Source: Squalus acanthias (taxonomy: Eukaryota). From it: a DNA stretch of 64,000 nt. Shown in pieces: positions 17,857 through 64,000 of this stretch. The position numbers and the translations under genes were made by a program. Numbering within the stretch: position 1 is the first letter of the stretch; the number at the start of each line of letters is the position of its first letter. The stretch lies in assembly GCA_030390025.1 (NCBI GenBank), contig CM059432.1:99574001-99638000 (forward strand), written 5' to 3'. Under the pieces are notes generated by a model that saw only the letters and a program-made list of their open reading frames with translations, was not told the DNA's origin and did not search any database.

Positions 17857-20687
17857 AGGGCTCCCAAAGCTATTTTTAGAGATCATGGAAGGACACAATG
17901 TTCAACCTTCGAGTGGGCATGTTTAAGGTGAAATTGTGATGCCTAATCTGAATTTTTGCGATGTTTCACTGTTAATGCTCATGGAGAATCGTCTGTGATT
18001 CGCCTTCGCTTGTATGTATAAGAACATAAGAAATAGGAGCAGGAGTAGGCCATTTGGCCCTTCGAGCCTGCTGTACCATTCAATAAGATCATGGCTGATC
18101 TTCTACCTCATCTTCACTTTCCTGCACTATCCCCATATCCCTTGATTCTCTTAATATTCAAAAATCTTTTGATCTCTGTCTTGAATATACTCAACGACTG
18201 AGCCTCCACAGCCCTCTGGGGTAGAGAATTCCAAAGATTCACCACCCTCTGAGTGGAAAAAATGTCTCCTCATCTCAGTCCTAAATGGCCGGCCCCTTAT
18301 TCTGAGACTGTGACCCCTGGTTCTAAACTCCCCAGCCAGGGGAAACATCCTCCCTGCATCTACCCTGACAAGCCCGGTATAAATTTTGTTTATTTCAATG
18401 AGATCACCTCTCATTCTTCTAAACTCTAGAGAATATAGGCTTAATCTACTCAATCTCTCCTCATAGGACAATCCCCCATCCCAGGAACCAGTCTGGTGAA
18501 CCTTCGTTGCACACCCTCTAAGGCAAGTATATCTTTCCTTAGGTAAGGAGACCAAAACTGCACACAATACGCCAGATGTGGTCTCACCAGGGCCCTATAT
18601 AATTGCAGTAAGACGTCTTTAATCTTATACTCAAATCCTCTTCTAATAAAGGCCAACATACCATTTGCTTTCCTAATTGCTTGCTGTACCTGCATGTTAA
18701 CTTTCAGTGATTCGTGTACAAGGACACCCAGGTCCCTCTGAACACCAACATTTCCCAATCTCTCACCATTTAAAAGATACTCTGCTTTTCTATTTTTCCT
18801 ATCAAAGTGGATAACGTCACATTTCTCCACATTATATTCCATTTGCCATGTTCTTGCCCACTCACTTAGCCTGTCTATATCCCCTTGAAGCCTCCTTGCA
18901 TCCACCTCACAATTTACATTCCCACCCAGCTTTGTATCATCAGCAAACTTGGATATTACATTTCATCCCCTCATCCAAATCATTGATGTAGATTGTGAAT
19001 AGTTGAGGCCCAAGCACTGATCCTTGCAGTACCCCACTAGTTACAGCCTGCCAACCCGAAAATGACCCATCTGTTCCTACTCTCTGTTTTCTGTCCGTTA
19101 ACCAATCCTCAATCTATGCTAATATATTAGCCCTAATTTTGTTTAATAACCTCTTGTGTGGCACCTTATTGAAAGCCTTCTGAAAATCTAAGTACACCAC
19201 ATCCACTGGTTCCCCCCTTATCTATTCTGCTAGTTACAACCTCAAAACACTCAAACAGATTCATCAAACACGATTTCTCTTTCATAAATCCATGTTGACT
19301 CTGCCCAATCCTATTATTATTTTCTAAGTGCCCTGTTACCACATCCTTAATAATAGATTCTAGCATTTTCCCTACTCTTGATGTCAGGATAACTGGTCTG
19401 TAGTTCCCCGTTTTCTCTCCCTCCTTTCTTAAATAGTGGGGTTACATTTGCTACCTTCCAATCTGCGGGAACCGTTCCAGAATCTATGGAATTTTGGAAA
19501 ATGACAACCAATGCATCCACTATCTCTGTAGCCATCTCTTTCAAAACCCTATGATGCAGGCCATCAGGCCCAGGGAATTTATTGACTTTCAGTCCGATTA
19601 ATTTCTCCAGGTTTTTTTTTACTAATACTAATTTCTTTCAGTTCTTCATTCTCGCTAGAGCCTTGGTTCTCCATTATTTCCAGGAATTTTTTTGCATCTT
19701 CTTCCATGAAGACAGACTCAATGGGCTGGATTTTCTCAATGAGAAGCTTTTGGAGGTGGGACTGCTGCTTGCCAGCTCTCAATCCTGCCTCCATCAGCTT
19801 CTGGCCAACCAGCAAGATTTTCCCCTGATTGACCTTGTTAAGCCCGCCCAACGGGCTCAGCAGGCCAATTAGGGGGAAGTCACTGACAGAGCATGTCAAC
19901 ATCTGACGTGCCATAGAACATAGAACATAGAACAGTACAGCACAGTACAGGCCCTTCAGCCCTCGATGTTGTGCCGAGCATTGTCCGAGACCAAGATCAA
20001 GCTATCACACTCCCTATCACTCTGGTGTGCTCCATGTGCTTATCCAATAACCGCTTGAAAGTTCCTAAAGTGTCCGACTCCACTATCACAGCAGGCAGTC
20101 CATTCCACACCCCAACCACTCTCTGAGTAAAGAATCTACCTCGGACATCCCTTCTATATCTCCCCCCATGCACCTTATAGTTATGCCCCCTTGTAACAGC
20201 TGCCTCTACCCGAGGAAATAGTCTCTGAACATCCACTCTATCTATCCCCCTCATCATCTTATAAACCTCTATTAAGTCGCCTCTCATCCTCCTCCTCTCT
20301 AAAGAGAAAAGCCTCAACTCCCTCAATCTTTCCTCATAAGACCTCCCCCCCAAACCAGGCAGCATCCTGGTAAATCTCCTTTGCACCCTTTCCAATGCTT
20401 CCACGTCCTTCCTATAGTGAGGTGACCAGAACTGCACACAATATTCCAAATGTGGTCTCACCAAGGTCCTGTACAGTTGCAGCATAACCTCACGGTTCTT
20501 AAACTCAAACCCTCTGTTAATAAACGCCAACACACCATAGGCCTTCTTTACTGCTCTATCCACTTGAGTGGCAACCTTCAGAGATCTGTGGATATACATA
20601 GATACATAGAAGATAGGAGCAGGAGTAGGCCATCCGGCCCTTCGAGCCTGCTCCGCCATTTAATGAGATCATGGCTGATCCTTCAAT

Positions 20688-23639
20688 TCAGTATCCCGTC
20701 CCCGCCTTCTCTCCGTAACCCTTAACCCCTTTTGCCTGTAGAAATATATCTAATTCCCTCTTAAATATATTTAATGAGCTGGCGTACACTGCCCTCTGTG
20801 GCAATGAGTTCCACAGGTTCACCACTCTCTGAGTGAAGAAATTCCCCCTCATTTCTGTCCTAAATGGTTTAGCCCTTATCCTTAAATTATGTCCTCTAGT
20901 TCTGTTCTCACCCGCCAAGGGAAACATTCCTTCTGCATCTAATCTGTCTAGACCTGTCAGAATTTTATACACTTCTATGAGGTCCCCTCTCAATCTTCTA
21001 AACTCCAGTGTGTACATCCCTAAACTACATAGTCTCTCCTCATAGGTCAATCCCGCCATTCCTGGTATCAGCCTGGTGAATCGCCGCTGCACCCCCTCCA
21101 TGGCAAGAACATCTTTCCTCAGATGAGGCGACCAAAACTGTACACAGTACTCGAGGTGTGGTCTCACCAGTGCCCTGTACAGCTGCAGCAAGGTATCCCT
21201 GTTCCTGTATTCCAACCCTTTTGCTATGAAGGCCAGCATACCGTTTGCCTTCTTGACCGCCTGTTGCACCTGCATGCTCGCCTTCAGTGACTGGTGTACA
21301 AGAACACCCAGGTCTCTCTGTACTTCCCCCTCTCCCAATTTATTGCCATTTAAATAATAATTTGCCCTCCCGTTCCTGCACCCAAGGTGGATAACTTCGC
21401 ACTTGTCCACATTATAGTGCATCTGCCATTTATCCGCCCAATCACCCAGTCTGTCCAAATCGCTCTGGAGCTTCCTGGTCTCCTCCTCTGAGCCCACCCC
21501 CCCTCCTAGTTTAGTGTCGTCTGCAAATTTGGAAATGCTGCATTCGACTCCCTGATCCAGGTCATTAATATAAATTGTGAACAGCTGGGGACCCAGGACA
21601 GATCCCTGTGGTACCCCACTTGTTACTGCCTGCCATTCAGAAAATGAGCCGTTTATTCCAACTCTCTGTTTTCTATCTGACAGCCAGTTCTCTATCCACG
21701 TCAATACTTTCCCCTTTATCCCATGAGCTTCAATTTTCCATGCTAATCTTTTATGTGGGACCTTATCGAAGGCCTTTTGGAAGTCCAGGTACACCACATC
21801 TACTGGCTCTCCCCCATCTATTTTACCAGTTACTCCCTCAAAAAATTCCAATAGATTAGTCAAGCACGATTTACCCTTTGTAAATCCATGTTGACTCTGT
21901 CCTATCCTGTCCCCATTTGCTAAGTGCTCGGCTATTTCATCCTTAATGATGGACTCCAGCATTTTGCCCACAACTGATGTAAGGCTTACAGGTCTGTAAT
22001 TACCTGCTTTTTCCCTACCCCCCTTTTTGAATAGTGGGGTAACGTTAGCTACCCTCCAATCCATGGGCACTGTTCCCGAGTCTAATGAATTCTGAAAAAT
22101 CATGCTTAGTGCATCCGCTATCTCTAGGGCCACCTCCTTCAGTACCCTAGGATGCATGTTATCAGGCCCTGGGGATTTGTCCGCCTTCAATCCCTTTAGC
22201 TTCCTTAACACCATATCCTTAGAGATATTGATTTGCGTCAGTTCCTCCTTTGCCAATGTCCCTATTTTTCCCGATATCCCAGGGAGGTTTTTTGTGTCTT
22301 CCTTCGTAAAGACTGACCCAAAGTATGCATTTAGTTGGTCTGCCATTTCCTTATTTCCCATTATATATTCCCCCGTATCTGACTGCAATGGACCAACTTT
22401 GGTTTTCACCAGTCTTTTCCTCTTGATATACTTATAAAAGCTTTTGGAGTTAGTTTTTATATTTTCCGCCAGCTTGCTTTCGTAAGCTATTTTGCCCTTC
22501 TTGATTAAGCCCTTTGCCCTCCTTTGCTCTATCTTAAACTGTTCCCAATCTTCCGCTCTGGCGCGTTTTTTGGCTATTTTATACGCCCTATCTTTGGATT
22601 TTATGCTGTCTCTAATTTCCCCTGTTATCCACGGTTGAGTCACCTTTTTAGATTTCCTTTTATGCCAGATTGGTATAAACAATTTTTGCAATTTTGTCAT
22701 TCTATCTTTAAATGCTTGCCATTGTTTATCTACCTCCAGTCCTCCCAGGAACGTTGTCCAATCAGACCTACTCAGTTCCCGTCTAATGGCATCATAATTC
22801 CCCTTGTTTAAATTCAGGACCTGAGTCTCTGAGTCAATTTCTTCGCTCTCCATTTCGAGTGAGAAATCGATCATGTTATGATCGCTCTGACCCAAGGGTC
22901 CCCGTACAACAAGATTACTAATTAGTCCCTTCTCATTGCACAGTACCCAGTCCAATATAGCCTGTTCCCGAGTTGGTTCCTCGACATATTGATCCAGATA
23001 ACCATCCCTTAAACACTCAAGGAATTCCTCCTCCTCATTATTTTTACTGATTAGGCTAGTCCAATCTATATGTAAGTTAAAGTCACCTATGATGACAGCT
23101 GTGCTCTTATTGCACGCTTCTCTAATTTCCCTCGTGATGCCCTCCCCAACCTCTATTTTACTATTTGGAGGCCTATATACCACTCCTATTAATGTTTTTC
23201 GCCCCTCGCTATTTCTTAGCTCCACCCATATAGATTCTGTATTAACTGAGTTAATATCCTTCCTTTCAATTGCATTTATCCCCTCTTTTACCAGCAATGC
23301 TACCCCTCCTCCCTTTCTTTTTTGTCGATCCTTCCTAAATACTGAATACCCCTGTATGTTAAGCTCCCAGCCCTGCTCACCCTGCAACCATGTTTCCGTA
23401 ATCCCAATTAGATCATAATTATTAACCTCTATTTCCACAGCTAATTCATCTACCTTGTTCCTGATGCTTCTCGCATTAAGGTATAAAACCCTCAGGCTTT
23501 TTTTATGCTCACATTTTTTATGAATTAGTTTGGCCCTTTGTTTTTTGTTCCTCTCCTTTTTACCATTTATTTCTGTCTGCCTTTCACTTTCCTCTATTTC
23601 ACTACATGGGTTTCTAGCCCCCTGCCATACTAGTTTAAA
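20688..23639 (-). CDS. CR1 ORF2: APE-type endonuclease plus reverse transcriptase, with no initiating AUG
   Basis: Motifs LYLNARS, ITETW, GDFN, SDH, PQGSVLGP and FADD. The frame stays open 67 codons upstream of the track start (23438), back to the ORF1 end. Confidence 0.95.
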   Translation of the reverse strand, partial: FKLVWQGARNPCSEIEESERQTEINGKKERNKKQRAKLIHKKCEHKKSLRVLYLNARSIRNKVDELAVEIEVNNYDLIGITETWLQGEQGWELNIQGYSVFRKDRQKRKGGGVALLVKEGINAIERKDINSVNTESIWVELRNSEGRKTLIGVVYRPPNSKIEVGEGITREIREACNKSTAVIIGDFNLHIDWTSLISKNNEEEEFLECLRDGYLDQYVEEPTREQAILDWVLCNEKGLISNLVVRGPLGQSDHNMIDFSLEMESEEIDSETQVLNLNKGNYDAIRRELSRSDWTTFLGGLEVDKQWQAFKDRMTKLQKLFIPIWHKRKSKKVTQPWITGEIRDSIKSKDRAYKIAKKRARAEDWEQFKIEQRRAKGLIKKGKIAYESKLAENIKTNSKSFYKYIKRKRLVKTKVGPLQSDTGEYIMGNKEMADQLNAYFGSVFTKEDTKNLPGISGKIGTLAKEELTQINISKDMVLRKLKGLKADKSPGPDNMHPRVLKEVALEIADALSMIFQNSLDSGTVPMDWRVANVTPLFKKGGREKAGNYRPVSLTSVVGKMLESIIKDEIAEHLANGDRIGQSQHGFTKGKSCLTNLLEFFEGVTGKIDGGEPVDVVYLDFQKAFDKVPHKRLAWKIEAHGIKGKVLTWIENWLSDRKQRVGINGSFSEWQAVTSGVPQGSVLGPQLFTIYINDLDQGVECSISKFADDTKLGGGVGSEEETRKLQSDLDRLGDWADKWQMHYNVDKCEVIHLGCRNGRANYYLNGNKLGEGEVQRDLGVLVHQSLKASMQVQQAVKKANGMLAFIAKGLEYRNRDTLLQLYRALVRPHLEYCVQFWSPHLRKDVLAMEGVQRRFTRLIPGMAGLTYEERLCSLGMYTLEFRRLRGDLIEVYKILTGLDRLDAEGMFPLAGENRTRGHNLRIRAKPFRTEMRGNFFTQRVVNLWNSLPQRAVYASSLNIFKRELDIFLQAKGVKGYGEKAGTGY

Positions 23640-24577
23640 TGCTCCCGAACTGCTTTATCAAAATTTACCCCGAGAACCTCAGTTCCATCTTTGCACAGGT
23701 GTAGACCGTCCCTTTTGTATAGGTCACACCTACCACAAAACTGGTCCCAATGCCTCAAAAATTTAAAACCCTCCCTCTTACACCACTGCTCAAGCCACGT
23801 ATTTAGCCTAACTATCCTGTTCTCTGTACTCTTACTAGCACGTGGCACTGGTAGTAATCCAGAGATTACTACCTTCGAGGTCCTACTTTTTAGCTTGGCT
23901 CCTAACTCCCTAAATTCTACTTGTAGGACCTCTTCCCTTTTTTTAGCTACGTCGTTGGTACCAACATGTATCACGACAACTGGCTGTTCCCCCTCCCCCT
24001 CCAGAATGTTCTGCACCCGCGCCGAGACATCCTTGACCCTTGCACCAGGGAGGCAAATTACCATCCTGGAGTCTCGGTCGCGACCACAGAAACTCCTATC
24101 TATTCCCCTTACAATCAAATCCCCTATTACTATAGCCCTGCCACTCTTTTTCCCTCCCTTCTTTGCAACAGAGCCAGTCATGGTGCCATGAGCCTGGCTG
24201 CTGGTGCCTTCCCCCGATGAGTCATCCCCCCCGACAACAGCACCTAAGGCGGTGAACCTGTTGCTGAGGGAGACAACCCCAGGGGATTCCTGCACTACCT
24301 TCCTGCCCTTGCTCTGCCTTTTGGTCACCCATGTACTATCTACTCTGGCCTTAACCTGCGGTGTGACCAACTCACTAAATGTGCTATTCACAACCCTCTC
24401 AGAATCGTGGATGCTCCAAAGTGAGTCCATCCGCAGCTCAAGGGCCGTCATGCGGTCCCACATGAGCTGCAGCTGGACACACTTCCCGCACACATGGTTG
24501 TCAGGGACACAGGAAGCGTCCATGATTTCCCACATGTTACAGGAGGAGCATGACACAGGTCCGAGCTCTACTGCCAT
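23630..24577 (-). CDS. CR1 ORF1: zinc finger, coiled coil and SGNH/GDSL esterase-like domain (315 aa)
   Basis: CSSC...HVCGKC, then the esterase blocks IGDLIVRG, CLPGA, HVGTND and DGLHL. Confidence 0.95.
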   Translation of the reverse strand: MAVELGPVSCSSCNMWEIMDASCVPDNHVCGKCVQLQLMWDRMTALELRMDSLWSIHDSERVVNSTFSELVTPQVKARVDSTWVTKRQSKGRKVVQESPGVVSLSNRFTALGAVVGGDDSSGEGTSSQAHGTMTGSVAKKGGKKSGRAIVIGDLIVRGIDRSFCGRDRDSRMVICLPGARVKDVSARVQNILEGEGEQPVVVIHVGTNDVAKKREEVLQVEFRELGAKLKSRTSKVVISGLLPVPRASKSTENRIVRLNTWLEQWCKREGFKFLRHWDQFCGRCDLYKRDGLHLCKDGTEVLGVNFDKAVREHLN

Positions 24578-24983
24578 GACTTAACCCTTATATTACTTAT
24601 TAATTTTCTAGTTTTAGTTTATTTATTGACTTTTGTTTTCCCGAAGCTTACTTAGACCAATGTATACTGTACTCCTCTTATTCCTTTTTAAACTAACCAA
24701 ATCGCACTAGTTTTAGTTGTACTTTCTAGGAAGGTTTGAGGAAAGTACTTACCAGTTAGTCTTACCTCCCTGGTCTTTCGCTGACTTCCCGGTCTTGTGT
24801 CCCCTTGGTCCTACGCCGACTTCCCGCTCCTCCCGGTTCCTGCTCTGCTGAAAAGAAACTGAGACCAAAAAATTTGTGACCTCTGTTTTTAGACTGCTAA
24901 AAGACTACTAGGTTAGAGGAGGAGGGCGGGTGGGGGTTCCTACTCTGTAGGAACTCGGGTTTAAGCCACCACCCTCCTTAAAT

Positions 24984-25956
24984 GCCGCTCCAACCAGGTC
25001 CGCTCCTCCTTCCCCGCTGCCGACCGCTCTGTGGGAGAAAAAGAAAGAAAGGCTCCTCCTCCGCCGCTGTCGACGCTGGTCTGAGGCCTACCTGAGCCTC
25101 GGGGCTCCCTTTATCGACTCGCCGCCGCTCCCGCCGCTCCAACCAGGTCCGCTCCTCCTTCCCCGCTGCCGACCGCTCTGTGGGAGAAAAAGAAAGAAAG
25201 GCTCCTCCTCCGCCGCTGTCGACGCTGGTCTGAGGCCTACCTGAGCCTCGGGGCTCCCTTTATCGACTCGCCGCCGCTCCCGCCGCTCCAACCAGGTCCG
25301 CTCCTCCTTCCCCGCTGCCGACCGCTCTGTGGGAGAAAAAGAAAGAAAGGCTCCTCCTCCGCCGCTGTCGACGCTGGTCTGAGGCCTACCTGAGCCTCGG
25401 GGCTCCCTTTATCGACTCGCCGCCGCTCCCGCCGCTCCAACCAGGTCCGCTCCTCCTTCCCCGCTGCCGACCGCTCTGTGGGAGAAAAAGAAAGAAAGGC
25501 TCCTCCTCCGCCGCTGTCGACGCTGGTCTGAGGCCTACCTGAGCCTCGGGGCTCCCTTTATCGACTCGCCGCCGCTCCCGCCGCTCCAACCAGGTCCGCT
25601 CCTCCTTCCCCGCTGCCGACCGCTCTGTGGGAGAAAAAGAAAGAAAGGCTCCTCCTCCGCCGCTGTCGACGCTGGTCTGAGGCCTACCTGAGCCTCGGGG
25701 CTCCCTTTATCGACTCGCCGCCGCTCCCGCCGCTCCAACCAGGTCCGCTCCTCCTTCCCCGCTGCCGACCGCTCTGTGGGAGAAAAAGAAAGAAAGGCTC
25801 CTTCTCCGCCGCTGTCGACGCTGGTCTGAGGCCTACCTGAGCCTCGGGGCTCCCTTTATCGACTCGCCGCCGCTCCAACCAGGTCCGCTCCTCCTTCCCC
25901 GCTGCCGACCGCTCTGTGGGAGAAAAAGAAAGAAAGGCTCCTCCTCCGCCGCTGTC
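24984..25956 (-). repeat. Tandem array of ~6.6 copies of a 149-bp GC-rich monomer forming the CR1-C 5' end
   Basis: Units start at 24984, 25133, 25282, 25431, 25580, 25729 and 25869. They are near-identical (one C>T and one 9-bp deletion seen). Confidence 0.97.
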
Positions 25957-27774
25957 GATATGAACCCCCAGATCCCTCTGCTCCTCCACGTTCCTCAGAA
26001 CCCTGCCGTTGACCCTGTAATCCTTATTCAAATTTGCCCTACCAAAATGAATCACCTCGCACTTATCAGGGTTAAATTCCATCTGCCATTTTTCGGCCCA
26101 GCTCTGCATCCTATCAATGTCTCTTTGCAGCCTACAACTGCCCTCCAGCTCATCCACTGCTCCACCAATCTTGGTGTCATCAGCAAATTTACTGATCCAC
26201 CCTTCAGTCCCCTCCTCCAAGTCATTGATAAAAATCACAAACAGCAAAGGACCCAGCACCGACCCCTGTGGCACACCGCTGGTAACTGGTCTCCAGTCCG
26301 AAAATGTTCCATCCACCACCACCCTCTGCCTTCTATGAGATAGCCAGTTACTTATCCAATCGGCCAAATTTCCCTCTATCCCACAACTCCTTACTTTCTT
26401 CATGAGACGACCATGGGGAACCTTATCAAACGCCTTACTAAAATCCATGTATACGACATCAACTGCTCTACCTTCATCTACACACTTAGTTACCTCCTCA
26501 AAGAATTCAATCAAATTTGTTAGGCAAGACTTACCCTTCACGAATCCGTGTTGACTATCCCTGATTAAGTTGCCCCTTTCCAAATGGTCATAAATCCTAT
26601 CCCTCAGGACCTTTTCCATTATCTTACCAACCACCGAAGTAAGACTAACCGGCCTATAATTACCAGGGTCATTCCTATTTCCTTTCTTGAAGAGAGGAAC
26701 AACATTCGCCACTCTCCAGTCCTCTGGCACCATCCCTGTGGACAGTGAGGACCCAAAGATCAAAGCCAGAGGCTCTGCAATCTCCTCCCTTGCCTCCCAA
26801 AGAATCCTAGGATATATCCCATCTGGCCCAGGGGACTTATCGACCCTCAGGTTCTTCAAAATTGCTAAAACATCTTCCCTCAGAACATCTACCACCTCCA
26901 GCCTATCCACCTTTATCACACTCTCATCCTCAAGAACATGGCCCCTCTCCTCGGTGAACACTGACGAAAAGTATTCATTCATCACCTCTCCCATCTCTTC
27001 TGACTCCATGCACAAGTTCCCACTACTGTCCTTGACCGGCCCTACCCTCACCCTGGTCATTCTTTTATTTCTCACATAAGAGTAAAAAGCCTTTCTTGAA
27101 AGAAGAAATGTCAGCGTTTGACAGCTCTGTGAAGCTGTCAAACACTGACATTCTGTGTAGTTTGATGAGTCCTTGTGTTAAGGACTCATCAAACCTTTCA
27201 ACTTTGCAGAAATAACCTGGCTGTTGGTTCGGAGGATCCAACAGCCAGCCTATGAAGTTAACAGGCAGTTAATAGGATTTAATCCCTTTCCTGCCTCGAG
27301 GAGATGGTACCCGGGGCAGGACGGCTTCCCACCTCCTGGCAAAAGGGCACAGAGGTGGGATGGGGGTGGGTTTGTCAGCTGCACCCACATTCTGCAACTT
27401 TACCAGCAATCCCGCCTCCATACCCACCTCCTCGGGGCTGACAAAATCCAGCCCAAAGTATTTGTTTAATTTTTCTGCCATTTCCTTATTCCCCATTATA
27501 ATTTCTCCTGTCTCAGCCTGTAAGGGACCCACATTTACTTTTGATAGTCTTTTCTTTTTTGCATACCTATAGAAGCTTTTACAGTCTGTATGTCTCGCAA
27601 TGTTATTCTCATTCTATTTTCCCTTTCCTTATTAATTTCTTGATCCTGCTTTGCAGAATTCTAAAATCCTCACAATCCTCAGGCGTACTACGCTTTTTGG
27701 CAACATTATAAGCCTCTTCCTTTGATCTAATACTATACACAGCACCAGCGGTGTTCGACGGGATCGGGACAATC

Positions 27775-40200: not shown

Positions 40201-41927
40201 TTGTTCGCTCTGTCCCTTCCTGACACAATCTGCTTATCCTTACCCCAATCACTTTCCTGCACTGCTTCCTTGTCTTTTTTCTTTGGCATTCTAGATTTCT
40301 CTCCACTGGGACCCCCCCCCCCCATTATTTAGTTTAAAGCCCTATCTAACTCCCTAGTTATTCGATTCGCTAGAACTCTGGTCCCAGCATGGTTCAGGTG
40401 TAGTCCGTCCCAACGGAACAGCTCTCTCTTTCCCCAGTACTGGTGCCAGTGCCCCACAAATTGAAACCCACTTCTCCCACACCAATCTTTGAGACACGCA
40501 TTCATCTCCCTGATCCTATTGACTCAATGCCAATTTGCTTGTGGCTCCAATAATAATCCAGAGATTATGACCTTTGTGGTTCTGCTTTTTAATTTAGTCC
40601 CTAGCTGCTCAAACTCTCTCAGCAGAACTTCTTTCTTTGTCCTACCTATGTCGTTGGTACCTACATGGACCACGACAACTGGATCCTCCCCCTCCCACTC
40701 CAAGTTCTTCTCCAGCCCGGAGGAGATGTCCTTTACCCTGGCACCGGGTAGGCACCATAGCTTTCGGGACTCATGCTCCTGGCTGCAGAGAACAGTGTCT
40801 ATCCCCCTAACTATACTGTCACCTACAACAACCACCTTCCTTTTTGCTCCCCCCACTTGAACGGCTTCCTGTACCACGATGCTGTGGTCAGTTTGCTCGT
40901 CCTCCCCACAGTCCCCGCACTTGTCCACAAGGGTTGCAAGAACCTCGAATCTATTGGACAAGTGCAGGGACTGAGGCTCCTGCAATACTACCTCCTGTGT
41001 CCCCGTACCTGCCTCACTCGCAGTCACACCCTCCTGTCCCTGACCACGTGTCAATTCTAAAGTATTTAATCTAAGGGGTGTGGCTGCCTCCTGGAGCAAA
41101 AGGTCCAGGTAACTTTCTCCCTCCCTGATGTCTCGCAATGTCTGCAGCTCGGAGCTGAAGTTCCTCGAGCCGCAGACACTTACCACAGATGTAGTCGCCC
41201 TGGACAAAAATGTTCACAAGCTCCCACATATTGCAGCAGCAACACATCTCCTGTTCTCCCATTATTTTATTTATTTAATTAATTAGTTTAGTGTTAATCA
41301 AATTATTTACCTCCTTTAGTTTATTAAATTAATTAAATTAAGTTTAGTTTTTAAAATTTAGATATATGTTATATGTTAACTTAAAAGTTAGCCCACAGTC
41401 ACTACCAATCACTTACCTGCCTTACCTTTGAAGTCACACTGCCATTTTTTCTTGTTGATGCAGGTCTGCTGCTGCTTTTATCCCCGCTCTCGGGCCTCGG
41501 TCGGCTCCCACTCAGGTCCGCCGCTGCTCTGCGGGAGAAGTTAGGAAAAGCTAGCACCTCCTTCCTCCACTTCACCGAACTCCCACACTTACCAAACTCC
41601 CAGTTGTTCACTCTGTTCTGGCTGCACTAACAGGCCCCTGTGTTTATACTGTTTGTGACTCAGATGAGTCAGCACTGCTCTGCTATGGTTTCAGGAACCA
41701 GTTTAATCCAGTTAGCTAATTAACTAACTACATCAGTTCTCCAGCAGGAGAATTTGCTTGTTTGTCTCTGCTTAAGCCTGAAGAAACTCAACATTTTAAC
41801 TTAAACAGTTGATCTTATTTAAGAGCTACTAGCAATTAACACTAGATTTTAAAAGAGATTAACCCTTAAAACTCCCACACTTATCAAACTCCCATTTGTT
41901 CACTCTGTGCTCGCTGCACTCAGTGCT
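37225..41927 (-). mobile_element. CR1-D: full-length decayed CR1 with 10-bp TSD
   Basis: TSD CAGTGAACAC at 37215-37224 and 41928-41937. Fragmented ORF1 (41262-40329; GDSIVRG, HVGTND) and ORF2 (EN and RT). Confidence 0.93.
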
Positions 41928-57695: not shown

Positions 57696-60600
57696 GAGCG
57701 GCGAGAGGCCAGCGAGAGGAGCGAGAGCAGCGGCGCTATAAAGAGTGCGAGACCAGCGGCAAGAGGAGGGGCGAGAGGAGCAGCGAGAGGAGCGGCGAGA
57801 GGAGCAGCGAGAGGAGCGGTGAGAGGAGCGGCGAGAGGAGGGGCGAGAGGAGCGGCGAGAGGAGGGGCGAGAGGAGCGAGAGGAGCGGCGAGAGGAGCAG
57901 CGAGAGGAGCGAGAGGAGCGGCGAGAGGAGCAGCGAGAGGAGGGGCGAGAGGAGCGGCGAGAGGAGCAGCGAGAGGAGGGGCGAGAGGAGCGGCGAGAGG
58001 AGCGGCGAGATGAGGGGCGAGAGGAGGGGCGAGAGGAGGGGCAAGAGGAGCGGCGAGAGGAGGGGCGAGAGGAGGGGCGAGAGGAGGGGCAAGAGGAGCG
58101 GCGAGAGGAGCGAGAGAGGAGCGGCGAGAGGAGCGAGAGAGGAGCGGCGAGAGGAGGGGCGAGAGGAGGGGCGAGAGGAGCAGCGAGAGGAGGGGCGAGA
58201 GGAGGGGCAAGAGGAGCGGCGAGAGGAGCGAGAGAGGAGCGGCGAGAGGAGCGAGAGAGGAGCGGCGAGAGGAGCAGCGAGAGGAGCGGCGAGAGGAGCA
58301 GCGAGAGGAGCGGCGAGAGGAGCGGCGAGAGGAGCGGCGAGAGGAGGGGCGAGAGGAGGGGCGAGAGGAGCGGCGAGAGGAGCGAGAGAGGAGCGGCGAG
58401 AGGAGCAGCGAGAGGAGGGGCGAGAGGAGCGGCGAGAGGAGCGAGAGAGGAGCGGCGAGAGGAGCGGTGAGAGGAGCGGCGAGAGGAGCGGCGAGAGGAG
58501 CGGCGAGAGGAGCGGCGAGAGGAGCGGCGAGAGGAGCGGCGAGAGGAGGGGCGAGAGGAGGGGCGAGAGGAGCGGCGAGAGGAGCGGTGAGAGGAGCGGT
58601 GAGAGGAGGAGCGAGAGGAGGGGCGAGAGGAGCGGCGAGAGGAGCGGCGAGAGGAGCGGCGAGAGGAGGGGCGAGAGGAGGGGCGAGAGGAGCGGCGAGA
58701 GGAGCGGCGAGAGGAGGGGCGAGAGGAGGGGCGAGAGGAGCGGCGAGAGGAGCGGTGAGAGGAGCGGTGAGAGCAGGAGCGAGAGGAGGGGCGAGAGGAG
58801 CGGCGAGAGGAGCGGCGAGAGGAGCGGCGAGAGGAGGGGCGAGAGGAGGGGCGAGAGGAGCGGCGAGAGGAGCGGCGAGAGGAGGGGCGAGAGGAGGGGC
58901 GAGAGGAGGGGCGAGAGGAGCGGCGAGAGGAACGGCGAGAGGAGCGGTGAGAGGAGGGGCGAGAGGAGGGGCGAGAGGAGCGGCGAGAGGAGCGGCGAGA
59001 GCAGCGGCGAGAGGAGCAGCGAGAGGAGCAGCGAGAGGAGCGGCGAGAGGAGGGGCGAGAGGAGGGGCGAGAGGAGCGGCGAGAGGAGCGGCGAGAGGAG
59101 CGGCGAGAGGAGCGGCGAGAGGAGCGGCGAGAGGAGCGGCGAGAGGAGGGGCGAGAGGAGGGGCGAGAGGAGCGGCGAGAGGAGCGGCGAGAGGAGGGGC
59201 GAGAGGAGGGGCGAGAGGAGGGGCGAGAGGAGCGGCGAGAGGAGCGGCGAGAGGAGGGGCGAGAGGAGGGGCGAGAGGAGGGGCGAGAGGAGGGGCGAGA
59301 GGAGCGGCGAGAGGAGCGGCGAGAGGAGGGGCGAGAGGAGGGGCGAGAGGAGGGGCGAGAGGAGGGGCGAGAGGAGCGGCGAGAGGAGGGGCGAGAGGAG
59401 GGGCGAGAGGAGCGGCGAGAGGAGCGGCGAGAGGAGGGGCGAGAGGAGGGGCGAGAGGAGCGGCGAGAGGAGCGGCGAGAGGAGGGGCGAGAGGAGCGGC
59501 GAGAGGAGGGGCGAGAGGAGGGGCGAGAGGAGGGGCGAGAGGAGGGGCAAGAGGAGGAGCGAGAGGAGCGAGAGAGGAGCGGCGAGAGGAGGGGCGAGAG
59601 GAGGGTCGAGAGGAGGAGTGAAAGGAGCGGCGAGAGGAGCGGCGAGAGGAGTGGCGAGAGGAGCAGCGAGAGGAGCGAGAGAGGAGCGGCGAGAGGAGCG
59701 GCGAGAGGAGCGGCGAGAGGAGCGGCGAGAGGAGGGGCGAGAGGAGCGGCGAGAGGAGCGGCGAGAGGAGGGGCGAGAGGAGGGGCGAGAGGAGGGGCGA
59801 GAGGAGCGGCGAGAGGAGCGGCGAGAGGAGGGGCGAGAGGAGGGGCGAGAGGAGGGGCGAGAGGAGGGGCGAGAGGAGGGGCGAGAGGAGCAGCGAGAGG
59901 AGGGGCGAGAGGAGGGGCGAGAGGAGGGGCGAGAGGAGGGGCGAGAGGAGGGGCGAGAGGAGGGGCGAGAGGAGCGGCGAGAGGAGGGGCGAGAGGAGTG
60001 GCGAGAGGAGGGGCGAGAGGAGGGGCGAGAGGAGGGGCAAGAGGAGGAGCGAGAGGAGCGGCGAGAGGAGCGGCGAGAGGAGCAGCGAGAGGAGCGAGAG
60101 AGGAGCGGCGAGAGGAGAGTTGAGAGGAGGGGCGAGAGGAGGGGCAAGAGGAGGAGCGAGAGGAGGGGCAAGAGGAGGAGCGAGAGGAGCGAGAGAGGAG
60201 CGGCGAGAGGAGCGGCGAGAGGAGGGGCGAGAGGAGCGGCGAGAGGAGGGGTGAGAGGAGTGGCGAGAGGAGGGGCGAGAGGAGGGGCGAGAGGAGGGGC
60301 AAGAGGAGGAGCGAGAGGAGCGAGAGAGGAGCGGCGAGAGGAGGGGCGAGAGGAGGGTCGAGAGGAGGAGTGAAAGGAGCGGCGAGAGGAGCGGCGAGAG
60401 GAGTGGCGAGAGGAGCAGCGAGAGGAGCGAGAGAGGAGCGGCGAGAGGAGCGGCGAGAGGAGTGGCGAGAGGAGCAGCGAGAGGAGCGGCGAGAGGAGTG
60501 GCGAGAGGAGTGGCGAGAGGAGTGGCGAGAGGAGCAGCGAGAGGAGCGGCGAGAGGAGCAGCGAGAGGAGCGGCGAGAGGAGCGAGAGAGGAGCGGCGAG

Positions 60601-63600
60601 AGGAGAGTTGAGAGGAGCAGCGAGAGGAGGGGTGAGAGGAGGGGCGAGAGGAGGGGCGAGAGGAGCAGCGAGAGGAGCGGCGAGAGGAGCGGCGAGAGGA
60701 GTGGTGAGAGGAGCAGCGAGAGGAGGGGCGAGAGGAGCAGCGAGAGGAGGGGTGAGAGGAGGGGCGAGAGGAGGGGCGAGAGGAGCAGCGAGAGGAGCGG
60801 TGAGAGGAGGGGCGAGAGGAGGGGCGAGAGGAGCAGCGAGAGGAGCGGCGAGAGGAGCGGCGAGAGGAGTGGTGAGAGGAGTGGCGAGAGGAGCGGTGAG
60901 AGGAGGGGCGAGAGGAGGGGCGAGAGGAGCAGCGAGAGGAGCGGCGAGAGGAGCGGCGAGAGGAGTGGTGAGAGGAGTGGCGAGAGGAGCGGTGAGAGGA
61001 GGGGCGAGAGGAGGGGCGAGAGGAGCAGCGAGAGGAGCGGCGAGAGGAGCGGCGAGAGGAGTGGTGAGAGGAGTGGCGAGAGGAGCGGCGAGAGGAGCGG
61101 CGAGAGGAGCGGCGAGAGGAGGGGCGAGAGGAGGGGCGAGAGGAGCAGCGAGAGGAGCGGCGAGAGGAGCGGCGAGAGGAGTGGTGAGAGGAGTGGCGAG
61201 AGGAGCGGCGAGAGGAGCGGCGAGAGGAGGGGCGAGAGGAGCAGCGAGAGGAGCGGCGAGAGGAGCAGCGAGAGGAGCAGCGAGAGGAGCGGCGAGAGGA
61301 GCAGCGAGAGGAGCGGCGAGAGGAGCAGCGAGAGGAGGGGCGAGAGGAGCAGCGAGAGGAGGGGCGAGAGGAGCGGCGAGGGGAGCGAGGGGAGCGAGGG
61401 GAGCGAGAGAGGAGGGGCGAGAGGAGAGTTGAGAGGAGGGGCGAGAGGAGCAGCGAGAGGAACAGCGAGAGGAGGGGCGAGAGGAGGGGCGAGAGGAGGG
61501 GCGAGAGGAGGAGCGAGAGGAGCAGCGAGAGGAGCGGCGAGAGGAGGGGCGAGAGGAGCGGCGAGAGGAGGGGCGAGAGGAGGGGCGAGAGGAGCGGCGA
61601 GAGGAGCGAGAGAGGAGCGGCGAGAGGAGGGGCGAGAGGAGCGGCGAGAGGAGCGAGAGAGGAGCGGCGAGAGGAGGGGCGAGAGGAGCGGCGAGAGGAG
61701 GGGCGAGAGGAGGGGCGAGAGGAGGGGCGAGAGGAGCGGCGAGAGGAGCGAGAGAGGAGCGGCGAGAGGAGGGGCGAGAGGAGCGGCGAGAGGAGCGAGA
61801 GAGGAGCGGCGAGAGGAGGAGCGAGAGGAGCAGCGAGAGGAGGAGCGAGAGGAGTGGCGAGAGGAGTGGCGAGAGGAGCGGCGAGAGGAGCGGTGAGAGG
61901 AGCGGCGAGAGGAGTGGCGAGAGGAGCAGCGAGAGGAGCGAGAGGAGCGGCGAGAGGAGTGGCGAGAGGAGTGGCGAGAGGAGGGGCGAGAGGAGGGGCG
62001 AGAGGAGCTGCGAGAGGAGCAGCGAGAGGAGCGGTGAGAGGAGCGGCGAGAGGAGCGGCGAGAGGAGCGGCGAGAGGAGCGGCGAGAGGAGCGGCGAGAG
62101 GAGGGGCGAGAGGAGCTGCGAGAGGAGCAGCGAGAGGAGCGGCGAGAGGAGCGGCGAGAGGAGCAGCGAGAGGAGCGGCGAGAGGAGCGGCGAGAGGAGG
62201 GGCGAGAGGAGCAGCGAGAGGAGCGGCGAGAGGAGGGGCGAGAGGAGCAGCGAGAGGAGCAGCGAGAGGAGCGAGAGGAGCGGCGAGAGGAGCGGCGAGA
62301 GGAGCGGCGAGAGGAGGGGCGAGAGGAGCAGCGAGAGGAGCAGCGAGAGGAGCGGCGAGAGGAGCGGCGAGAGGAGCAGCGAGAGGAGCAGCGAGAGGAG
62401 CGGCGAGAGGAGGGGCGAGAGGAGCAGCGAGAGGAGCAGCGAGAGGAGCGAGAGGAGCGAGAGGAGGAGCGAGAGGAGCAGCGAGAGGAGCGAGAGGAGC
62501 GAGAGGAGGAGCGAGAGGAGCAGCGAGAGGAGCAGCGAGAGGAGCAGCGAGAGGAGCAGCGAGAGGAGCGAGAGGAGCGGCGAGAGGAGCGGCGAGAGGA
62601 GGGGCGAGAGGAGCAGCGAGAGGAGCAGCGAGAGGAGCAGCGAGAGGAGCGAGAGGAGCGGCGAGAGGAGGGGCGAGAGGAGCGGCGAGAGGAGCGGCGA
62701 GAGGAGCAGCGAGAGGAGCAGCGAGAGGAGCAGCGAGAGGAGCGAGAGGAGCGGCGAGAGGAGCGGCGAGAGGAGCGGCGAGAGGAGGGGCGAGAGGAGC
62801 AGCGAGAGGAGCAGCGAGAGGAGCGAGAGGAGCGGCGAGAGGAGTGGCGAGAGGAGTGGCAAGAGGAGCGGCGAGAGGAGTGGCGAGAGGAGTGGCGAGA
62901 GGAGTGGCGAGAGGAGCGAGAGGAGCGGCGAGAGGAGCGGCGAGAGGAGTGGCGAGAGGAGCGGCGAGAGGAGTGGCGAGAGGAGCGAGAGGAGCGGCGA
63001 GAGGAGTGGCGAGAGGAGTGGCGAGAGGAGCGGCGAGAGGAGCGGCGAGAGGAGGGGCGAGAGGAGCGGCGAGAGGAGGGGCGAGAGGAGCAGCGAGAGG
63101 AGCGGCGAGAGGAGGGGCGAGAGGAGCGGCGAGAGGAGCGGCGAGAGGAGGGGCGAGAGGAGGGGCGAGAGGAGCGGCGAGAGGAGCGGCGAGAGGAGCG
63201 GCGAGAGGAGCGAGAGAGGAGCGGCGAGAGGAGCAGCGAGAGGAGCAGCGAGAGGAGCAGCGAGAGGAGCAGCGAGAGGAGCGAGAGGAGCGGCGAGAGG
63301 AGCGGCGAGAGGAGTGGCGAGAGGAGCGGCGAGAGGAGGGGCGAGAGGAGCGGCGAGAGGAGCGGCGAGAGGAGCGGCGAGAGGAGCGGCGAGAGGAGCG
63401 GCGAGAGGAGCAGCGAGAGGAGAGCGAGAGGAGGAGCAAGAGGAGCAGCGAGAGGAGCGGCGAGAGGAGTGGCGAGAGGAGCGGTGAGAGGAGCGGCGAG
63501 AGGAGTGGCGAGAGGAGCGGCGAGAGGAGTGGCGAGAGGAGCGGCGAGAGGAGCGGCGAGAGGAGCGGTGAGAGGAGTGGCGAGAGGAGAGTTGAGAGGA

Positions 63601-63690
63601 GCGGCGCGAGGAGCGGCGAGAGGAGCGGCGAGAGGAGTGGCGAGAGGAGTGGTGAGAGGAGTGGCGAGAGGAGCATCGCTATAAAGAGCG
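57696..63690 (+). repeat. ~6-kb purine-rich minisatellite, 12-bp unit GAGAGGAG(C/G/T)(G/A)GC with 9- and 11-bp variants
   Basis: Directly visible. It explains all the long low-complexity ORFs in this interval. Confidence 0.98.
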
Positions 63691-64000
63691 CGAGTGGAAG
63701 AGGAGGCAGTGGACCTGAGCGGGAGCAGAGCGAGAGAGGCAACAACTCAACAGAGGCAGAATCCAAAAGAGTGACGTCAGAGTAGAAAAAGTGACGTTGG
63801 CACAAGGGAAGAAGCTGATTGGTGAGTAGCTGGTGAGTGTTTTTTTTAATTTGAAGTTTATTTCTGTTAAGTTAGTTCTTAGTCTATTAAATAGAGACAT
63901 GGCAGGGCAGCTCAGTCCCATGGAGTGCACATCCTGTGCCATGTGGGAAGTCCTGGTCGCTTCGTGTAGCCAGGACAACCACATGTGCAGGAAGTGTCAC
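63676..64000 (+). mobile_element. CR1-E 5' UTR and start of ORF1 (ATG at 63899; runs off window end)
   Basis: MAGQLSPMECTSCAMWEVLVASCSQDNHMCRKCH aligns with the CR1-C ORF1 start MAVELGPVSCSSCNMWEIMDASCVPDNHVCGKC. Confidence 0.9.

Follow-up and report, generated by a model that had tools for sequence, protein, structure and literature searches.

The 64-kb stretch of DNA analysed here (the window) contains a young, intact, full-length CR1-type LINE on its minus strand (20591..25956), which sits inside ORF2 of an older CR1 copy, with ATATC present on either side as a direct repeat of 5 bp (25961-25957 and 20595-20591). In birds, reptiles and cartilaginous fish, few repeats are as common as CR1 elements, and LINEs of this type typically end in a 3' stem-loop and a short terminal repeat in place of poly(A). 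The element is classed as CR1-type by its domain content, its esterase ORF1 and its 3' end: in the 3' UTR (20591..20687) a local stem-loop is predicted, and the terminal repeats are short, of TCTATG type, and not accompanied by poly(A). The 5' UTR is an array of 6.6 tandem GC-rich monomers of 149 bp each (24984..25958). ORF1 (23630..24577) encodes 315 aa, with an N-terminal cysteine-rich region and an SGNH/GDSL esterase that matches Pfam PF13472 and, over aa 149-311, the 'ORF1-encoded protein' of PDB 4c1b_A (E 2.7e-29).

ORF1 ends Leu-Asn-stop. The heptamer T_TTA_AAC (23639-23633) lies there in X_XXY_YYZ phase with ORF1 and is directly followed by the stop codon TAG (23632-23630), which in relatives is either TAG or TAA. 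The frame of ORF2, which is shifted by -1 against ORF1, lies open between 23654 and 20688, and the stop that bounds it upstream is separated from the heptamer by five codons. Read from the heptamer, this frame encodes 983 aa, comprising a variable linker, an APE endonuclease (Exo_endo_phos, aa 55-254) and then a reverse transcriptase (RVT_1, aa 541-751), with PF03372/PF14529 and PF00078 all above the Pfam cut-off, and it is 43-44% identical to the ORF2 of two full-length bird-type elements. Its first AUG (22874-22872; Met at aa 256) comes immediately past the SDHN motif, beyond the endonuclease. A G-rich tract begins 6 nt past the heptamer and includes a G5 run (23622-23618, from 11 nt past the heptamer), a candidate stimulator whose position is conserved across lineages. 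This layout had been set out in the original prediction, and its coordinates all proved correct on re-examination.

Among 738 candidates, at least 40 copies match the junction region with 100% identity. The window also holds a second, older and degraded CR1 family on the minus strand, with an ORF1 40% identical to that of the young element and a junction (40329..40338) that again consists of heptamer, stop (TAA) and G-run; in that copy the phase of ORF2 is 0, behind a long G run.

Conservation of the junction across lineages

Taken alone, one 10-mer in the window does not exceed chance (with at most one mismatch it has 9 matches against 4.9 expected, and 9 of 100 shuffles had as many), and the evidence lies instead in conservation between lineages. 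Similarity searches with protein or DNA, which made no use of the motif, gave 287 loci and in them 170 ORF1 ends; the 30 loci found by a motif-dependent pattern search are excluded from these numbers and from the 53 copies considered below. TTTAAAC stands right before the stop in 145 of the 170 ends and GTTAAAC in one (L121, the one case of the G_TTA_AAC variant in DNA), while ten more have kept the heptamer, out of phase through an upstream indel. The remainder are five ends that are one base off, one that is degraded and eight distant esterase ORFs, and the motif is absent from more distant esterase LINEs. Five copies share the loss of one G upstream and have no other derived site in common; the idea that they represent an amplifying subfamily was rejected, there being no clade signal.

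A long open ORF2 is in the -1 frame, with that frame open across the heptamer, in 48 of 53 copies (45 of the 53 come from three families of one genome, and the independent lineages number about ten), the other five being in +1 through small indels. Of the 16 full-length ORF2s in 60 fetched shark regions, 15 are in -1. They come from three families with linkers of 128, 149 and 191 nt, and in one shark family the linker contains a Met. ORF2 is also in -1 in bird-type elements (L122, L127, L130, L134) and in distant ones (L121, L257, L277), and conservation of the junction reaches three shark families, bird-type elements and probably invertebrate elements. As the ORF2 frame of L122 opens only one codon before the heptamer, initiation upstream cannot explain the fixed codons. 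Some comparisons below use 20 representatives, four of them families from the pattern search; since the representatives were located by the heptamer, a count of the heptamer among them would be circular and is not used as evidence.

In the comparison that the original prediction had called for, the heptamer, its phase and the -1 frame prove to have been kept despite silent sites that are saturated, four-fold identity between shark, bird-type and distant groups being 0.15-0.31. Across six lineages, none of 26 invariant-Leu columns and none of 67 invariant four-fold columns of ORF2 keeps one codon, and across eight lineages third bases are invariant in only one of 279 variable columns. TTA accounts for only 11% of Leu codons. 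The base preceding TTA is T under different amino acids (12/12), and it is T also among the motif-pattern matches listed, for which the pattern left that base free. Similarly, the Gly past the spacer is encoded by GGG in 19 of 20 representatives, although GGG makes up 33% of Gly codons.

The same constraint can be followed in proteins. ORF1 tails end in LN in 70 of 108 cases, and the residue before LN has a codon unable to end in T (Q, E, K, M or W) in one of the 70, compared with 26 of 70 one position earlier; ORF1 proteins of a turtle (KAM7138764.1) and a lizard (XP_060129222.1) have LN at their ends as well. All eight tails that end in GN are QGN, which at the protein level fits G_GGA_AAC and suggests a putative compensatory variant of the heptamer. 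No DNA for ORF1 families ending in QGN or KN turned up in viral contigs, in plasmid and phage records, in a GTDB ORF1 scan or in the 399 genomes scored of 401 from one order. The sole match to an ORF1 query in the viral contigs (L160) turned out to be an unrelated phage-like esterase, and the scan of those contigs also gave five weak reverse transcriptase matches (L251-L255).

The downstream G-run

The original prediction had proposed looking for a hairpin, pseudoknot or G-quadruplex downstream of the heptamer. None was found, and the conserved feature there is instead a G-run with constant spacing from the heptamer. The run starts at +11 in 13 of the 16 representatives not selected on it and between +8 and +12 in all 16. 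Minimum free energy folds of the 80 nt downstream are no more stable than those of shuffled sequences in any of the 20 representatives (z -1.1 to +0.8), an RNAalifold consensus on 23 junctions contains no pairs, and, judged from stems, there is no conserved hairpin or pseudoknot stem 5-9 nt past the heptamer, where a classical stimulatory structure would lie. The G4Hunter-type score of the window copy, 0.64, is the lowest among the 20 representatives. Long-range base pairing between the G-run and the 3' UTR was considered and rejected, as in an 8 x 8 table an element's own 3' end had no advantage over the 3' ends of the other elements. The downstream element is a short conserved motif with fixed spacing and without structure, as in signals of the arterivirus type. 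G runs are indel-prone in copies.

Probable frameshifting and its alternatives

The junction combines several marks of a programmed -1 frameshift site: a heptamer of X_XXY_YYZ form in phase, an overlapping -1 frame that is open across it, and nucleotide conservation beyond protein constraint. On mammalian ribosomes, U_UUA_AAC and G_GGA_AAC rank with the most shifty heptamers, and a G_UU(A) slippery form is used by equine arteritis virus (PMC5009743, in part). We therefore consider it likely, from sequence comparison, that programmed -1 ribosomal frameshifting yields an ORF1-ORF2 fusion, which the original prediction put at about 1,300 aa and for which we compute a predicted length of 1,296 aa. 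For the majority of ribosomes UAG would end translation, giving the 315-aa ORF1 protein. In a minority, tRNA-Leu and tRNA-Asn would slip back by one base (UUA to UUU, AAC to AAA), and these ribosomes would read CUA in place of the stop and continue through the variable linker into the endonuclease and reverse transcriptase. Slippage may be favored by a pause from the adjoining stop codon together with the G-run about 10 nt downstream, which, given that we found no conserved RNA structure, we propose to act through its sequence.

The main alternative is that ribosomes terminate and then restart a few bases past the ORF1 stop, at an AUG or independently of one, so that ORF2 is made as a separate protein and the heptamer and G-run constitute a re-initiation signal. 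For ORF2 of mammalian L1, an AUG-independent initiation of unknown kind is assumed (PMC5009743, in part), and it follows that a missing AUG is no proof of frameshifting; moreover, ORF2 translation depends on that of ORF1 in both L1 and SART1 (PMC2881922, in part), and re-initiation likewise predicts a fixed phase. The window family has no usable AUG for the endonuclease, as the original prediction had argued. An in-frame AUG directly at the stop or shortly past it is present, however, in five of the 20 representatives: it lies 2 nt past the stop in four of seven bird-type representatives (L122, L125, L127, L134), and L152 has a UAAUG overlap. The other 15, the window family included, have no in-frame AUG in the first three codons past the heptamer, and past the stop there is no conserved start or near-start codon, the -1 frame varying without constraint at its codons 4 and 5. 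Nor does re-initiation account readily for a conserved 7-mer with the X_XXY_YYZ pattern and the phase to go with it, when by arithmetic only 24 of 16,384 heptamers have that pattern, or for variants (G_UUA_AAC in L121 and the predicted G_GGA_AAC) that remain known slippery forms. On balance we regard re-initiation as unlikely.

It is considerably harder to attribute the junction to some other constraint, such as an esterase C-terminal Leu-Asn, a promoter-like TTTAAA or polymerase slippage at the G-run, with ORF2 expressed by an unrelated route. The C-terminal LN does lie within, or just past, the part that matches the solved ORF1 esterase region, and the tendency of G runs to gain and lose bases would be in keeping with slippage, but a protein constraint would not fix synonymous positions that are free elsewhere, the preference for GGG past the spacer is left without explanation, and intact copies are in -1 rather than in mixed phases; we judge such an account very improbable.

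The least plausible proposal is that a spliced or sub-genomic RNA links ORF2 to an upstream start, the junction providing a branch point and, ahead of the G-run, a 3' splice site. In several families the run is indeed immediately preceded by CAG or AAG, but F200b and L152 have no AG there, a polypyrimidine tract is absent, four runs of contigs contain no joint at the junction (a weak point, as their RNA status is guessed), and an ungapped contig spans 23327-23745, although contigs give no measure of how often splicing occurs, of strand or of level. The contigs aligned to the element also include two joints of low depth within ORF1.

If programmed frameshifting is indeed used, it would explain how CR1 elements make their copying enzyme, which would be an ORF1-ORF2 fusion produced at a set ratio, and ORF2 annotations that start at the first AUG would leave out the endonuclease. 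Animal genomes would then contain a -1 frameshift signal of ancient origin that can do without the RNA structure usual for such signals. The conserved signal is 25 nt long and can be tested with one reporter.

Comparison with known systems

In anatomy the element does not differ from other CR1-clade LINEs with an esterase ORF1 in birds, turtles, lizards and cartilaginous fish, which have the esterase, APE and reverse transcriptase and no poly(A). A short ORF overlap was reportedly described for turtle CR1 in the 1990s. We found no report of frameshifting in CR1 in the literature within reach, which did not extend to older subscription papers, among them those of the 1990s on chicken and turtle CR1; the portion of PMC5009743 examined, a source on frameshifting, does not contain the term 'CR1'. 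Translation of LINE ORF2 is described as unresolved in the available parts of two reviews (PMC2881922, PMC5009743). Mammalian L1 and silkworm SART1, like CR1, have a bicistronic LINE RNA in which ORF2 translation depends on that of ORF1 (PMC2881922, in part), but both are thought to re-initiate and to make a separate ORF2 protein, in contrast to the fusion proposed here, and the ORFs of L1 do not overlap (PMC1965478, in part). TRE5-A and TRE3-A of Dictyostelium are also APE-RT LINEs, although of a different clade and host, and their ORF2 is said in a review to need a -1 frameshift (PMC5911963, in part).

The U_UUA_AAC frameshift of viruses (coronavirus/IBV; retroviral gag-pro-pol) has the same heptamer and phase (for the heptamer, PMC5009743, in part) and the same two-ORF logic, in which an abundant RNA-binding or structural protein is accompanied by a rare polymerase fusion. 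CR1 differs in being a non-LTR retrotransposon, in the stop that adjoins the heptamer, and in having a G-run at fixed distance with no pseudoknot or hairpin detected.

The spacer of the arterivirus nsp2 signal is similar, about 10 nt. The -2/-1 frameshift at PRRSV nsp2 is stimulated by a short downstream motif bound by proteins rather than by RNA structure (PMC7618843, PMC5009743, both in part); PCBP and nsp1-beta are the proteins that bind this C-rich motif, whereas the CR1 motif is G-rich and has no known binder. It is tempting to speculate, though we hold this only tentatively, that LINEs mirror both retroviral routes to Gag-Pol: a sister LINE group appears to use UAG readthrough, while the CR1 clade, from sharks to birds and invertebrates, would make a Gag-Pol-like fusion by a structure-free frameshift. 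That frameshift would be driven by the adjoining stop and by proteins bound to the G-run 10 nt downstream, so that animal genomes would encode a G-rich equivalent of the arterivirus signal.

The LINE in the window and its ORF1-ORF2 junction

The full-length LINE lies on the minus strand at about 25956-20591, has a 5-bp direct repeat and sits within ORF2 of an older CR1. Its 5' UTR is an array of 6.6 near-identical 149-bp monomers (24984-25958, minus strand), which may be likened to the monomer promoters of rodent L1. ORF1 (minus strand) encodes 315 aa with an SGNH esterase domain, its closest named relatives being those of sharks and rays, which points to a cartilaginous fish as host, and the ORF2 frame on the same strand encodes an APE endonuclease and a reverse transcriptase. 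The family is a young one: over the 551 bp of the junction, 40 of 40 scored matches (738 candidates in the 3.7-Gb genome) are 100% identical. With so many identical copies, the offset between the frames is neither a sequencing error nor decay of the window copy.

ORF1 ends in T_TTA_AAC TAG at 23639-23630 on the minus strand. The -1 frame opens five codons upstream of the heptamer and extends to 20688, where ORF2 ends, and its first AUG is codon 256, downstream of the last endonuclease motif. With coordinates checked on the window, heptamer, phase, open frame and late AUG are all as described in the original prediction, which had proposed a -1 frameshift at U_UUA_AAC giving a Gag-Pol-like ORF1-ORF2 fusion; the predicted fusion is 1,296 aa long. 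One nucleotide past the ORF1 stop, an AUG in good context begins a +1-frame mini-ORF of 4 codons (23628-23614, minus strand), an AUG that is present in three shark families and absent from other families. Elsewhere in the window, a purine-rich tract at ~58000-64000 is strongly skewed in composition, with a GC skew of about 0.6 and an AT skew of 0.7-0.96, and is probably a simple satellite.

Conservation of the heptamer and its phase

Junctions were collected from the same genome (DNA and protein searches), metagenome contigs and animal DNA inside bacterial genome bins. The counted set was 287 loci, with ORF1 ends located by profile in 170; left out were 29 loci of the identical family, 30 that came from a pattern biased towards the motif, and a single unrelated one. 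Some bin elements are presumably 'bird-type', given their resemblance to the chicken CR1 3' end, and the label 'invertebrate' for others is a guess. LINE reverse transcriptases occur at 46 loci in bacterial and archaeal genome records (the GTDB bins behind L256-L301), with many LINE copies in one bin of 17.8 Mb; the LINE loci in these bins are host contamination. One ORF1 relative (P0011) is filed under Pseudomonas aeruginosa.

Immediately 5' of the stop, TTTAAAC is found in 145 of the 170 ORF1 ends and GTTAAAC in one; in 10 the heptamer is intact but an indel 5' of it has shifted the phase, in 5 it has a one-base difference and in 1 it is degraded, and 8 ends belong to distant esterase ORFs that have no such motif. 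Where ORF2 is long and open, it lies in the -1 frame in 48 of 53 copies and in +1, via small indels, in 5; three shark families supply 45 of the 53, which leaves about ten independent lineages. Heptamer and phase thus recur across lineages as the original prediction would have it, and the phase is unchanged while the stop-to-endonuclease distance ranges from 110 to 263 nt between elements. Many copies of the L257/L304 group carry two overlapping slippery-form heptamers at the junction, T_TTT_TTA then T_TTA_AAC.

Silent sites are saturated when the shark, bird-type and distant groups are compared with one another (four-fold identity 0.15-0.31); among the three shark families, four-fold identity is 0.32-0.42. 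Across six lineages, a single codon is kept in 9 of 218 invariant columns of ORF2, and in 0 of 26 where the invariant residue is Leu. The conserved Gly and Asp codons adjoining the ORF1 end vary, and the last two codons of ORF1 and the base preceding them are fixed in 12 of 12 rows, all found via the heptamer, so that the unbiased figure is the ORF1-end count of 145 of 170. A check on protein tails agrees with this nucleotide-level conservation: 70 of 108 end in LN, turtle and lizard proteins among them, and a residue whose codon cannot end in T directly precedes LN in 1 of these 70, whereas at the position before that the figure is 26 of 70. Another eight tails have the ending QGN, as G_GGA_AAC would require judging by protein sequence only. 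The other 30 of the 108 end differently, so not every esterase ORF1 carries the motif.

Routes to ORF2 and the downstream G-run

From sequence comparison, the signal is real and deeply conserved, and is best explained by programmed -1 frameshifting in CR1-type LINEs. The most likely mechanism, and one we consider quite probable, is that a minority of ribosomes would slip in tandem on U_UUA_AAC, and that these would go on to make the ORF1-ORF2 fusion. Re-initiation past the ORF1 stop as the source of ORF2 is rather unlikely: it too predicts a fixed phase, and in four bird-type copies the stop is followed at 2 nt by an in-frame AUG, while L152 has UAAUG, but it does not predict a heptamer of slippery form. 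Also in favour of re-initiation, translation of L1 ORF2 is thought not to depend on its own AUG, according to a review (PMC5009743). Frameshifting and re-initiation could operate side by side in AUG-bearing lineages; splicing as a route to ORF2 has little support, on data that are themselves weak.

If slippage is the mechanism, its stimulator would not be a classical one. A G-run (at least 4 G) starts 11 nt past the heptamer in 13 of the 16 representative junctions not selected on this feature, and between +8 and +12 in all 16; L257, L277 and L326 likewise have it at +11, and its Gly codon is almost always GGG. No stable or conserved downstream fold was found at the junctions, the G-quadruplex score of the window copy is low, and G-run pairing with the 3' end showed no cognate preference, so that the signal lacks a stimulator of the classical kind. 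Candidate stimulators are the stop codon next to the heptamer and, read as a sequence motif, the G-run, an unusual, structure-free part of the CR1-type signal. The review PMC5009743 describes a strong effect of a stop codon near the shift site in an umbravirus and stimulation by protein in arteriviruses.

Other LINE junctions and known systems

In a different esterase LINE group (L332, L336, L338, L342, L343 and L347, from animal DNA within the bacterial bins G007), ORF1 ends in TAG and the endonuclease is in the same frame, open directly past it; GGC-AYT-ACT-GCC is conserved 6 nt past the TAG at 6 of 6 loci, and the first Met comes 21-195 codons on. By analogy, the arrangement resembles the UAG readthrough known from murine leukaemia virus. 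A readthrough-like context is also seen in a non-esterase LINE (L270 at 1230-1240, and L265), in which ORF1 TGA is followed by CAA, the same frame continues and the first Met is 37 codons further on. 2A-like motifs, known for some LINEs, end in NPGP or HPGP directly 5' of the endonuclease in L279, L280, L281, L282, L284 and L300. In two distant esterase LINEs, ORF2 is likewise in -1 and its overlap with ORF1 measures 154 nt (L327) and 277 nt (L331). An in-phase A_AAT_TTT lies close to where the L331 overlap starts, and the pattern used found no slippery heptamer in the L327 overlap.

In viruses, -1 frameshifting at U_UUA_AAC is textbook. The openly accessible literature searched yielded no report of CR1 frameshifting, though an earlier proposal is possible, and the accessible part of the frameshifting review PMC5009743 makes no mention of CR1. 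Among LINEs, -1 frameshifting is stated for TRE5-A and TRE3-A of Dictyostelium in the review PMC5911963.
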